64,000 bases of DNA, from assembly GCA_003281505.1 (NCBI GenBank), contig QCBU01000007.1, positions 3,075 to 67,074 on the forward strand. The letters are read 5' to 3'. Shown here piece by piece: positions 41,539 through 44,580 of the stretch (positions are counted from its first letter, which is position 1; each line of letters opens with the position of its first letter). The notes beneath the pieces were generated by a model that was given only the letters and a program-made list of their open reading frames with translations, was not told the origin of the DNA and did no database searches. This DNA is from Prochlorococcus sp. AG-347-J14. Lineage in GTDB: Bacteria; Cyanobacteriota; Cyanobacteriia; PCC-6307; Cyanobiaceae. The position numbers were made by a program, and so were the translations under genes.

Positions 41539-41772
41539 TTACCCTTTACCACTTCCTTTAAGTCTGAGATTTAAAAATGGAGAAAATAAAATTAAACCTG
41601 GAAAGAAAAGAAATACAAGGCCATAAATACCTAATCTTTCGTATTTGCCCATAATATTCCATCTATTATTCATCCAGTAAAATAGTAACAATGGGATAAC
41701 CAATAAATAGGTAGAAATAATTCCGATATAAGCAATTAAAGTAGCTAATGAATTATTGTAAAAACTTTCCAT
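41539..41772 (-). CDS. ndhL: NDH-1 subunit L
   Basis: YLLVIP...RW...ER...[15 protein letters not shown]. Confidence 0.9.
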
Positions 41773-41850
41773 TTTAATTTATGGTTGCTTAGTTAAAACA
41801 TAACAACTATTGGAAGTTATCGTCAGAACTAAAAATAAATAATTAAATAA

Positions 41851-41936
41851 TGGGAGTGGGGGGACTTGAACCCCCACGAGCTAAATCGCTCGACGGATTT
41901 TAAGTCCGGCGCGTCTACCAATTCCGCCACACTCCC
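41851..41936 (-). tRNA. trnL-UAA: tRNA-Leu(UAA), intron-less, long variable arm, CCA not encoded
   Basis: Reverse complement GGGAGTGTGGCGGAATTGGTAGACGCGCCGGA-CTTAAAA-TCCGTCGAGCGATTTAGCTCGTGGGGGTTCAAGTCCCCCCACTCCCA folds as a class II cloverleaf. Confidence 0.97.
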
Positions 41937-42012
41937 AAAAAGAATTTGCGCTTTTTCATCGTAGCCGAAAGTATCACTTTTAACCAAAAAAATATCCCAA
42001 TATTTACACTTT
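41898..42012. repeat. Direct repeat copy 1 (tRNA 5' half from anticodon loop plus ~75 bp of upstream promoter)
   Basis: Colinear with 43392-43504 at offset 1494; first 21 bp identical (ttttaagtccggcgcgtctac), also ccgccacact, gaatttgcg and atcgtagccgaaag. Confidence 0.93.
41958..41963 (-). promoter_or_regulatory. Putative -10 element (TACGAT) of tRNA-Leu
   Basis: TAnnnT hexamer 21 nt upstream of the mature tRNA 5' end, inside a 14-bp block conserved in both repeat copies. Confidence 0.5.
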
Positions 42013-42058
42013 CCTTGAATAGATAGACTCGCAGGATTAATTATTACCTATTAATTTC

Positions 42059-42083
42059 CTAAAAAATTGTTGCAATTTTTTAG
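42059..42083. promoter_or_regulatory. Perfect 11-bp inverted repeat upstream of islet gene (possible operator or hairpin)
   Basis: CTAAAAAATTG-ttg-CAATTTTTTAG, 38 bp before the TTG start. Confidence 0.4.
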
Positions 42084-42121
42084 TCATCTAGCTAGCAATC
42101 AATTAATCAACATAAAAAAAA

Positions 42122-43243
42122 TTGAAAAAATTTATTGCATTATCTTTAATAGGTTCTAGCTTCTTGATCAGTAGCAATTCAGTCAAAGCCGACCTAATAA
42201 GAGTAGTTACTTTAGGAAGTAAAAACTATAAAGTTCAACGCGTTAATGAAACCACAAATGTAGCTACTGATTTAGTTGAATTTAATCAACCTAGTGGAGT
42301 AGCTTCTTCAGGATCTTTTCTAGATTCTTACAATAGAAAACTCTATATGGCTGGTGATAGCGATGGATATACTATTTATGATATTGACGCAAATACAATT
42401 ACAAAAGTGCCTTACGGATTAACTGGCCAGCTTAATAATTTTGTACCTTGGGAAGGTAAAAACGTTATCAAAAAAAATGAAGATGGAACTATTCAGATAG
42501 GTGGAGATGCTAATGATGTCGACATAACTTCAGAGGGTTTATCTGTTGATGGGGATCCCATTATAAGTAAGAAAGCAAATGGTGAGTTGCATATTGGTAA
42601 AAACTCTTGGATTACTAAAGAAGAAAATGGCAGGCAAAAAGTATATGCAAAAGATGCCGCAGGAAATCCAATACCTATAGACTATACAAATGGAACTAAA
42701 TTATTGATAAATGGAAGAGATATAGAACAATCAATAAATAATGTCGGAGCATTAAGTGCTGCTCTAACAGGATTACCAACAGTTCCTACTGACACTGCTC
42801 TTGCTTGTGGTTTAGGAGCAGGAACTCACGGGGGTGATTTTGCCTTTTCAGGAGGATGTGCTTCTAGAGTAAATGAAAAACTATCATTTAACTATGCCGC
42901 ATCTATGACTATGCCAGGTCAAGAATATGCCGGTGAATTTGAAGATAGTTTTTCTGCTAGAGCTGGATTTGTTTGGCAATTAGGTAAGGCAAAAAAGCCA
43001 ACTCAAATTAGCATGAATCAAAAAGAAGAAATAGATCTAAAATTATCTCAACTTGAAAATGATAATGAAAAATTAAAAAATGAGAACGAGAAAATAATAT
43101 CTAAAAATACTCATTTAGAAACTAGTAATAATGAGATAATTTCTCAAAATAAAAAACTTCTTGCACGATTAGAAAAATTAGAAAAAATTGCGTTTAAATT
43201 CCAGGGGGACAAATATAAGTTTTCAAAATCAATTTCAGAATAA
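42122..43243 (+). CDS. Exported protein with YadA-like anchor region and C-terminal coiled coil (trimeric autotransporter-like)
   Basis: Signal peptide MKKFIALSLIGSSFLISSNSVKA; beta-rich N-part; INNVGALSAALTGLP helix then amphipathic strands ending SARAGFVWQL; heptad tail LENDNEKLKNENE...LLARLEKLE. Confidence 0.7.
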   Translation: MKKFIALSLIGSSFLISSNSVKADLIRVVTLGSKNYKVQRVNETTNVATDLVEFNQPSGVASSGSFLDSYNRKLYMAGDSDGYTIYDIDANTITKVPYGLTGQLNNFVPWEGKNVIKKNEDGTIQIGGDANDVDITSEGLSVDGDPIISKKANGELHIGKNSWITKEENGRQKVYAKDAAGNPIPIDYTNGTKLLINGRDIEQSINNVGALSAALTGLPTVPTDTALACGLGAGTHGGDFAFSGGCASRVNEKLSFNYAASMTMPGQEYAGEFEDSFSARAGFVWQLGKAKKPTQISMNQKEEIDLKLSQLENDNEKLKNENEKIISKNTHLETSNNEIISQNKKLLARLEKLEKIAFKFQGDKYKFSKSISE

Positions 43244-43314
43244 TAGATTCTTTTATTTTGACATTTACTTCGCGCTAGATATAAGTTGGATATTTGTCCT
43301 TAATTGGACAGGTT

Positions 43315-43352
43315 AAAAATTAAGTAAGGGACTAGGTTCTAGCCTAATCCCT
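43315..43352 (-). terminator. Putative intrinsic terminator (minus strand)
   Basis: Minus-strand RNA AGGGAUUAGG-CUAGAA-CCUAGUCCCU (10-bp stem with one U.G pair; C.A mismatch on the plus strand) followed by UACUUAAUUUUU. Confidence 0.55.
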
Positions 43353-43391
43353 ATATATGCTGTACGCTAGTGTATTAATTATTTTGTTAGT

Positions 43392-43430
43392 TTTTAAGTC
43401 CGGCGCGTCTACAATTTCCGCCACACTACA
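43392..43430 (-). pseudogene. Degenerate tRNA-Leu 5'-half fragment
   Basis: 35/39 match to 41898-41936; changes in the acceptor stem (TGTAGTG vs GGGAGTG) and D-loop. Confidence 0.88.
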
Positions 43431-43504
43431 ATAAGGAATTTGCGATATCCAATCGTAGCCGAAAGCATGCCATTTAACTTAAAAAATTGGAATATTTCCA
43501 CTTT
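43392..43504. repeat. Direct repeat copy 2 (displaced tRNA 5' half plus promoter)
   Basis: See copy 1 at 41898-42012. Confidence 0.93.
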
Positions 43505-43530
43505 TAATTGTCAGATTAAATCTAATTTTT

Positions 43531-44580
43531 TTAATTTACTATTCCTTCTACTTGCCATTGTAAAGTTTCACCAGCATGAAATGGTTTAATTTGTCCGACA
43601 ATTTTTTTTTCTTCAACAACATCAATATATTCTTTAATTTTATTAGGTCTAGAAACTAATTTTAATTTTTCTTTATTTGGGGGGACATTATAAAAATGAG
43701 GGCCATTCAAACTTGCAAACTTTTCAAAATTATCTAGAGCATCCTCCTCTTCGAAAACTGTTAAGTAGCTTTCTATTGCTACTGGTGAATTAAAAATGCC
43801 TGCACATCCACAAAAAGCCTTCCACTTCCTAAGGTGTGGAGCAGAGTCAGTCCCCAAGAAAAAACATTTTTTCCCACTTGTTGCCGCTCTCCTTAAAGCG
43901 AGTCTATTATTTTCCCTTTTAGCAACTGGTAAGCAGTAAAAATCACTATTTAAGCCTCCAAAAAACATTGCATTTCTATTTATATGCAAATGATGCGGAG
44001 TAATAGTAGCCCCAATATTATTTTCTTGCACAAAATCCACTGCATAAGAGGTGGTTATATGTTCAAGAACGATTTTTAATTTTGGGAATCTTTTGGTTAT
44101 TTGAGAAAGTTCTTTATCTATAAAAACTTCTTCTCTATCGAATACATCTACTTCAGAATCAGTCACCTCCCCATGAATTAAAAGAGGCATTCCAGAATCT
44201 TGCATTAATTCAAAGATCTTATATAGATTTTCTATTTTCCTAACTCCATGACTAGAATTTGTTGTGGCATTTGCAGGATATAATTTTGCTGCAAAAAAAA
44301 CATTATTTTTAAAACCATTAATTAGTTCCCCTTTATCAGTGTCATCTGTAAGATAAATTGTCATTAATGGTTCAAACTTAGAACTTTCTGGTAGCGCTTC
44401 AAGAATAGATTTCCTATAAGAAATAGCGCTATTGATTGAAGTTATGGGACTTTTAGTATTTGGCATAACAATGGCTCTTCCAAAAAATTTGGAAGTAAAA
44501 TGAATGATATTTTTTAATACAAGACCCTCTCTTAAATGTAAATGCCAATCATCAGGTTTTATTATGTTTAAAGTCTTCAA
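43531..44580 (-). CDS. pyrC: Dihydroorotase (homodimeric type)
   Basis: PDDWHLHLR, KLYPANATTNS, LEHITT, GTDSAPH. Confidence 0.96.
   Translation of the reverse strand: MKTLNIIKPDDWHLHLREGLVLKNIIHFTSKFFGRAIVMPNTKSPITSINSAISYRKSILEALPESSKFEPLMTIYLTDDTDKGELINGFKNNVFFAAKLYPANATTNSSHGVRKIENLYKIFELMQDSGMPLLIHGEVTDSEVDVFDREEVFIDKELSQITKRFPKLKIVLEHITTSYAVDFVQENNIGATITPHHLHINRNAMFFGGLNSDFYCLPVAKRENNRLALRRAATSGKKCFFLGTDSAPHLRKWKAFCGCAGIFNSPVAIESYLTVFEEEDALDNFEKFASLNGPHFYNVPPNKEKLKLVSRPNKIKEYIDVVEEKKIVGQIKPFHAGETLQWQVEGIVN

Follow-up and report, generated by a model that had tools for sequence, protein, structure and literature searches.

How did a single gene come to lie between two copies of the 5' half of tRNA-Leu(UAA) in a genome in which no matching integrase was found? 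The locus belongs to a 64,000-nucleotide stretch of Prochlorococcus sp. AG-347-J14 (contig QCBU01000007.1), termed the window, from a genome (G000, 87% complete, GC ~32%) with 35 tRNAs, among which Leu(taa) is single. The GC content and the named homologues of the cargo protein point to a high-light Prochlorococcus. Local alignment revealed two direct repeats, 41898-42012 and 43392-43504, which share 80% identity over 115 columns at a start-to-start spacing of 1494 bp. The alignment scores 116, whereas none of 300 shuffles exceeded 28, and the BLAST E-value within the genome is 4e-23. Identity begins with TTTTAAG, the complement of the anticodon loop CTTAAAA, and spans the 39-nt tRNA 5' half plus ~75 nt upstream. 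The first-pass annotation had described colinear direct repeats 1494 bp apart that start at the anticodon loop, with one gene and no recombinase between them, and both statements are borne out: a single long ORF of YadA-like type is present, no int, RNA polymerase (RNAP) or other phage gene was found between the att sites of the window, and no P-SSP7-type integrase was found in G000.

On the tRNA strand, the locus reads pyrC, host arm B, a decayed 5' half, the phage arm P' ending at a motif, the cargo, a second motif, a host-type spacer, the complete tRNA and ndhL (Table 1). The upstream core gene is presumably pyrC, a name that follows the first-pass annotation. Both attL and attR are retained around the insert, each partly decayed, and recombinase and transfer genes are absent. 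In the displaced core, the 21 nt that end at the loop are unchanged. A hairpin scan of the P' region found one hairpin against 0.8 expected by chance and is thus weak alone; P-SSP7 has a 10-bp stem at the equivalent place, in which the letters differ and the pairing is kept. Contigs from independent metagenomes span 41925-42642 (9 differences in 715 positions) and 42895-43524 (14 in 631) at ~98% identity, and the genome G011 shows the same arrangement; therefore, the insert is not a misassembly.

Table 1. Features of the tRNA-Leu(UAA) locus in window coordinates.
Feature	Position	Strand	Evidence
ndhL, a core gene on the host B' side, downstream of the tRNA	41539..41772	-	PF10716, E 9e-27
Working tRNA-Leu(UAA)	41850..41937	-	ARAGORN
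Intact att core of 39 nt (5' half of the tRNA, anticodon loop included), attR-like	41898..41936	-	P-SSP7 and P-SSP3 share this core
Element-side arm (P*): spacer of host type, likely -10 box TACGAT (41958-41963)	41937..42012	-	likeness to empty sites; -10 position as in phage arms
Decayed phage arm motif (ATCTAGCG type), ~100 nt from core	42026..42039	-	motif-core spacing
Cargo, 373 aa, YadA-like anchor	42122..43243	+	PF03895
P' (downstream arm of phage attP), 120 bp, with its end exactly at motif TATATCTAGCGC (43272-43283)	43272..43391	-	matches to L111 and P-SSP7
Terminator-like hairpin within P'	43327..43352	-	hairpin scan and P-SSP7 comparison
Displaced, decaying tRNA 5' half, attL-like core with 4 changes in 39	43392..43430	-	alignment
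Resident host arm B, with original likely -10 box at 43452-43457, running into the empty-site pyrC flank	43431..43530	-	outer flank matches empty sites
pyrC-like dihydroorotase, upstream core gene	43531..44580	-	PF01979 (amidohydrolase), E 5e-20

The origin of the insert is disclosed by P', which lies outside the repeat. Together with the core, it matches the gap between int and RNAP of P-SSP7 (AY939843.2:5850-6018) with 83% identity over 171 bp, in line with the link to P-SSP7 suggested at first; the best match among uncultured phages is the viral locus L111, with 88% identity at phage positions 1-120. When viral contigs were scanned with part of the tRNA 5' half, 107 loci emerged: a whole tRNA gene in 16, the exact host 5' half but no full tRNA in 90, and a near-exact half in one. 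In the 91 loci without a tRNA gene, int and RNAP enclose the core wherever the flank is long enough (both genes in 76, RNAP only in 14 loci with a short upstream flank, int only in one locus with a short downstream flank). An attP next to an integrase, which the first-pass annotation proposed to seek, is present in viral contigs. On the other phage arm, the motif TATATCTAGCGC recurs where int ends. In metagenomes, the core is followed by a non-host base pattern at 106 loci, of which 73 are phage sites with int and RNAP, 13 have one of the two genes and 20 have neither, the last group including tandem arrays. The 16 viral loci with whole genes (e.g. L031, L036 and L064) encode a complete tRNA-Leu(UAA), the D arm and anticodon stem of which are host-like.

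The far junction has a counterpart in a true prophage edge. L127:1-451, at the edge of a contig in the viral collection, is an attL composed of the host spacer of another clade, the core, P' and the start of RNAP, with the same B-core-P' geometry and breakpoint as in the window. Integration of P-SSP7 at tRNA-Leu has been shown by PCR, and the attP motifs of T7-like cyanophages all match the first half of the tRNA, according to the sections of Shitrit 2021 (PMC8776855) at hand. The P' match, L127 and the published integration of P-SSP7 thus define the far copy as an attL-type junction of known 5'-half geometry, and the source of the element is identified from the 120-bp phage arm. It is near certain that the insert goes back to the integrase of a T7-like cyanopodovirus, with crossover in the 7-nt loop, and the integrase origin proposed earlier is supported. 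Replacement of a 5' half, once taken as unusual, is the geometry already published for T7-like cyanophage attP (Shitrit 2021, PMC8776855, in part). As far as the consulted parts of Sullivan 2005 (PMC1079782) and Shitrit 2021 (PMC8776855) go, the attP/attB of P-SSP7 and S-TIP37 share with the window the core in the first half of tRNA-Leu, the int-attP-RNAP gap and the breakpoint; however, these phages integrate whole and transiently, with no stable lysogen, whereas in the window the arms are stably fixed, the phage genes are gone and a host-type cargo is present.

On the promoter side, the near copy tells a different story from the foreign promoter that had been supposed for the working tRNA. 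A TAnnnT box lies 19-20 nt before the core in 110 of 110 distinct phage attP, compared with 2-66 in control windows, and because this position is constant, phage arms likely supply a promoter. In the window, the 75 nt upstream of the working tRNA are of host type, unlike phage P arms: they have a median identity of 83% to 89 empty-site spacers, and no long match to phage P arms was found for this spacer. As to which copy matches empty sites, the 75 nt are equally host-like in both copies and do not distinguish them; the pyrC flank of empty sites is continuous with the far copy only, not with the near one. Next to the restored tRNA, the window thus has a decayed motif and a host-type spacer in place of a phage P arm. 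Among 16 filled relatives, a true phage P arm with its -10 box precedes the working tRNA in six, and a host-like arm does so in ten. The TACGAT box of the window likely serves as a promoter element; a promoter scan found no consensus promoter at either repeat copy, and the -10 call accordingly rests on position. The arm motif lies 98-101 nt from the core in 22 of 23 host-like units and 96-98 nt from it in phage P arms, and is present in none of the 89 empty sites. By the conventions for integrase arm-binding sites and anticodon-loop crossover, this motif is likely an integrase arm-binding site, and P* would be a phage arm in which host sequence replaced the interior in register.

The site is empty in most of the genus. 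There are 94 genus genomes with at least 90% completeness, G000 included, and 89 of them match the site. Among the 88 near-complete relatives, with split cases fetched, 72 are empty and 16 are filled, 15 of the latter keeping a recognisable phage P' arm; the empty sites and cargo swaps anticipated earlier are both found. A further set of 121 loci, the best rows of a longer match list and hence biased, so that frequencies are taken from the 88 genomes, comprises 89 empty sites, one empty site with a long spacer, 30 filled sites (the window among them) and one unresolved; P' is lost in three of these 30. In all 18 units of P-SSP7 type, the P' homology extends to phage position 118-137 and stops there, past the motif (111) but short of the RNAP start codon. 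In a second arm family, it enters the RNAP start by ~35-115 nt in five of nine units, and some P arms reach ~200 nt from the core. Tandem arrays of two to three units are present in L160, L339, L344, L239, L240, L285, L292 and L295, not in the window, and L145 (G199:C6:35276-35865) is a cargo-less unit of ~250 bp with one arm motif, similar to a microCIME. One of the 89 empty sites, L187 (G176:C3 near 87,900), has an element-type spacer variant, which indicates loss of a cassette by recombination between the repeats. L342 (G018:C1:194900-195800) has an insert of ~1 kb with neither a phage P' match nor a clear gene and is probably a far-decayed unit.

Distal cores are intact in nine of 35 cases and mutated in 26; changes are slightly rarer on the loop side (7% versus 11%, p 0.02), a mild bias among kin that are not independent. 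Where a unit has both phage arms, as in 17 cases, the pair matches one and the same phage subfamily (r 0.81 versus 0.57 +/- 0.05, 0 of 2000 shuffles, again with kin not independent), and some unit arms are identical to a phage over 95-100 nt. No close phage integrase was found in the 285 genus genomes; only three match a phage integrase at all, at 27-28% identity. Across 301 genomes of the family, the core pattern matches only this genus and one other, where it is single-copy; since other genera differ in tRNA sequence, the pattern says nothing on cassettes there.

The cargo of the window has a YadA anchor (PF03895, residues 220-286, E 4.5e-5, above the cut-off). By eye, it also has an apparent signal peptide and a probable coiled-coil tail, and its domain points to a surface-exposed role. 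In classical trimeric autotransporters, the anchor is C-terminal; in the window, ~85 further residues of probable coiled coil follow the YadA-like anchor. The protein has at least 1143 homologues and no match in 50,697 phage records. Its dN/dS is 0.18 against G011 and 0.09 against G077, and it is under purifying selection while the att sites decay. The cargo of G011 is 95% identical to that of the window, compared with 88-90% for the flanks, and the genomes closest to the window at both flanks (97-98%) have either an empty site or another cargo. These discordant identities, together with the low dN/dS, indicate that the cassette moved between backgrounds and that the gene was maintained. G000 also has four tandem paralogues of the cargo near its tmRNA (C4:74090-80111). 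By eye, they lie downstream of the tmRNA and a ParA-like ORF, and their N-terminal parts are variable, with a conserved YadA-like C-terminal part.

In total, ORFs from 51 loci gave 67 proteins in 34 families, some of them spurious. Scanning of 27 representatives named an OMP beta-barrel, PspC, the YadA anchor, trypsin-TPR, MORN and rhomboid proteins, in addition to DUF805, DUF3721, a 2OG-Fe(II) oxygenase, an FkbM methyltransferase and a C-type lectin fragment. Because cargo families recur with different arm families, arms and cargo are not strictly linked. A cargo of ~225 residues of no Pfam family is common to L157, L292, L307 and L339, with at least three arm types, and has a partner of 125-140 residues in L157, L292, L339 and L299. 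A defence role was considered and rejected: PADLOC gave no match for 26 of the 27 representatives, and the lone match, the trypsin-TPR protein, aligned over the protease part. This cargo (L305:403-2112) combines a trypsin-like protease with TPR repeats, and its partial PADLOC matches lie mainly over the protease.

We propose that one host-type gene, enclosed by the two attachment arms of a T7-like cyanopodovirus, makes up a cassette without an integrase, and that this cassette was inserted as a unit by the phage integrase during infection; we give this reading a probability of roughly 55%. In the scheme, the phage integrase would first cross over in the 7-nt anticodon loop. Phage genes between the directly repeated arm motifs would then be lost, leaving a minimal attP able to take up genes of the flexible genome, and units of attP and cargo would be added successively at tRNA-Leu(UAA), with the phage integrase acting in trans or in cis. 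In the lineage of P-SSP7 type, host promoter sequence would overwrite the inner P arm in register. After fixation, the att sites would decay while selection keeps the cargo, as in the window. The units are possibly substrates of the integrase, with the arm motif as a candidate binding site and excision as a candidate reaction. The window copy, with four core changes and a decayed motif, fits the remnant supposed at first and is probably locked in. In support of insertion as a unit are the sharp ends at the motif, the kept motif spacing, the ordered tandem units, the matched arms and L237. The latter (L237:1-2390) is a single metagenome contig in which a P-SSP7-like early region with int (92% over 1.6 kb) is followed by the core, P' and, in place of RNAP, the 3' end of a YadA-family cargo; it could represent a phage that lies next to a cassette or carries one, or else a chimera that arose in assembly via the common arm. 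Decay of a prophage in place would predict matched arms within a unit just as well, and the RNAP overruns and long P arms of the second family are as ragged decay would give.

That rival holds that a whole phage integrated, its genes were deleted or replaced, and cargo entered at the arms by homologous or illegitimate recombination; filled alleles would then have spread by ordinary homologous recombination, the cassette never being an integrase substrate as a unit. We regard it as doubtful, though it accounts for several observations. The excised-circle pattern motif-spacer-core-P' has no match in metagenome contigs. In four runs compared with the window, joints skipping the insert were seen and no circle joint was convincing; one joint that goes back was rejected as a circle, its short side being the 40-nt core only, and is read as another allele. 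None of the 91 viral attP loci contains two cores or cargo, L237 being the one cargo-carrying phage contig, and its int-to-cargo bridge was not found in the contigs of four other metagenome runs. The decaying distal cores, the remnants of the RNAP start that the second arm family retains, the recurrence of one cargo with different arms, the loss by recombination in L187 and the existence of real prophage attL junctions (L127) likewise fit a scar filled in place. However, integration, cure and cargo gain would have to repeat for each unit of the arrays with two to three units, and all 18 units of P-SSP7 type end sharply at the arm motif. Nor would a scar readily explain why the motif-core spacing is preserved in P*, or why apparently the same unit, a cassette of a 227-residue porin-like protein, occupies different array positions in L240 and L344.

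Insertion as a unit might instead have been served by an unsampled autonomous satellite or tycheposon-like element, with its own P-SSP7-type integrase and a host-like attP, from which the cassettes would be deletion derivatives. The start of P* is fixed and its variants are common to many units, as such a source would predict; but a host-like spacer occurs in one of the 107 viral loci, which is a prophage edge, the P*-core-P' junction has no match in metagenome contigs, and the few integrase matches in the genus (above) are distant. We consider this origin improbable. An integron-like array is more improbable still. It would use a scar of L145 type as a platform, at which a recombinase inserts cassettes at the ATCTAGCG motif and duplicates it, in keeping with the direct motif copies that flank cargo and the single copy in the cargo-less unit. 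Yet tandem units are separated by whole P-core-P' junctions and not by the motif alone, the two-gene cargoes of L138 and L139 lack an internal motif, and the motif patterns in G000 match this locus and one unrelated place rather than the C4 paralogues. Finally, ancient local duplication or misassembly, which the first-pass annotation named as what could overturn it, can be dismissed despite the host-like 75 nt of both copies, given the phage arm inside the far copy, the 72 empty sites among 88 genomes and the independent contigs over both junctions.

A broader reading can be offered tentatively, with somewhat less than even confidence: lytic T7-like cyanophages would run a gene-cassette shuttle, in which minimal units of attP and cargo exploit the phage integrase and build up at tRNA-Leu(UAA) in roughly a fifth of high-light Prochlorococcus lineages; in some of these, a phage promoter would now drive the sole tRNA-Leu(UAA) gene. 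Integration of T7-like cyanophages proceeds without lysogeny, a behaviour whose consequence is left open in the consulted parts of Shitrit 2021 (PMC8776855). A lasting consequence of such integration is seen in 15 of 88 near-complete host genomes, where phage att arms are fixed and enclose varied, largely envelope-type genes. The site offers an eighth tRNA-linked entry point for genes in Prochlorococcus, driven by a lytic phage and not by a tycheposon. If the shuttle is real, the integrase of T7-like cyanophages, with no lasting host effect known so far, would have one, and part of the published ocean signal of integrated phage would be cassettes. In the part of Shitrit 2021 (PMC8776855) at hand, host-att-phage reads with flanks of at least 20 bp were counted as integrated phage, giving 1.6% for group I. 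The P' arms of cassettes are 75-86% like that of P-SSP7 among the 11 of 31 units listed, and cassette attL junctions could score as integrated phage in that count, on the assumption that they correspond to its att groups.

The attP geometry of the phage is known; the cassette family at tRNA-Leu appears to be new. The parts of Sullivan 2005 (PMC1079782) and Sullivan 2009 consulted do not describe such cassettes, and no description was found in the full-text literature, mostly of non-subscription sources; the figures and supplements of Shitrit 2021 and Hackl lie outside this scope and may mention them. The closest likeness in working is to streptococcal CIMEs and microCIMEs (PMC7563491, in part), which likewise have att sites without a recombinase, cargo (1.2-13 kb) or none (130-220 bp), and tandem accretion at a single target gene. 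However, CIMEs stem from ICEs or IMEs and are moved by conjugation, whereas the Leu cassettes lie upstream of the tRNA, their mobilisation is a candidate only, and they derive from the attP of a lytic podovirus, so that they are CIME-like but not CIMEs. Tycheposons (bioRxiv 10.1101/2020.12.28.424599) are also tRNA-targeted, patchy, cargo-bearing and tandem with partial tRNAs in Prochlorococcus, but they have their own integrase, and the targets given in the part of the preprint consulted are Pro-tgg, Ser-tga, Ala-ggc, Thr-ggt, Arg-tct, Met-cat and tmRNA, with no Leu. The Leu cassettes differ from them in that most units are below 2.3 kb and have phage arms; with no integrase and a target outside those seven, the tycheposon link suggested at first does not hold. 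HTVC019P-type pelagiphages of SAR11 (bioRxiv 10.1101/410191) are likewise T7-like, with attP between int and RNAP, and several restore the 5' end of the tRNA; the consulted part of that preprint describes whole-phage junctions and no cargo cassettes.

A phage satellite of the PICI-like type was also considered. Such satellites carry integrase, replication and capsid-hijack genes, and none of these was found in the window or in the scanned representatives of 27 of the 34 cargo families. The other partial tRNA repeats in G000 are 3' parts, which is the usual type for islands. They include six 3' fragments of tRNA-Pro(tgg) at C13:3368-18773 and one fragment of tRNA-Thr(ggt) at C17:2394-2441, the opposite half to that at the Leu site. 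A 42-nt 3' fragment of tRNA-Gly(gcc) lies at C2:110471-110512, ~3 kb from its gene, and Gly is outside the seven tycheposon targets.
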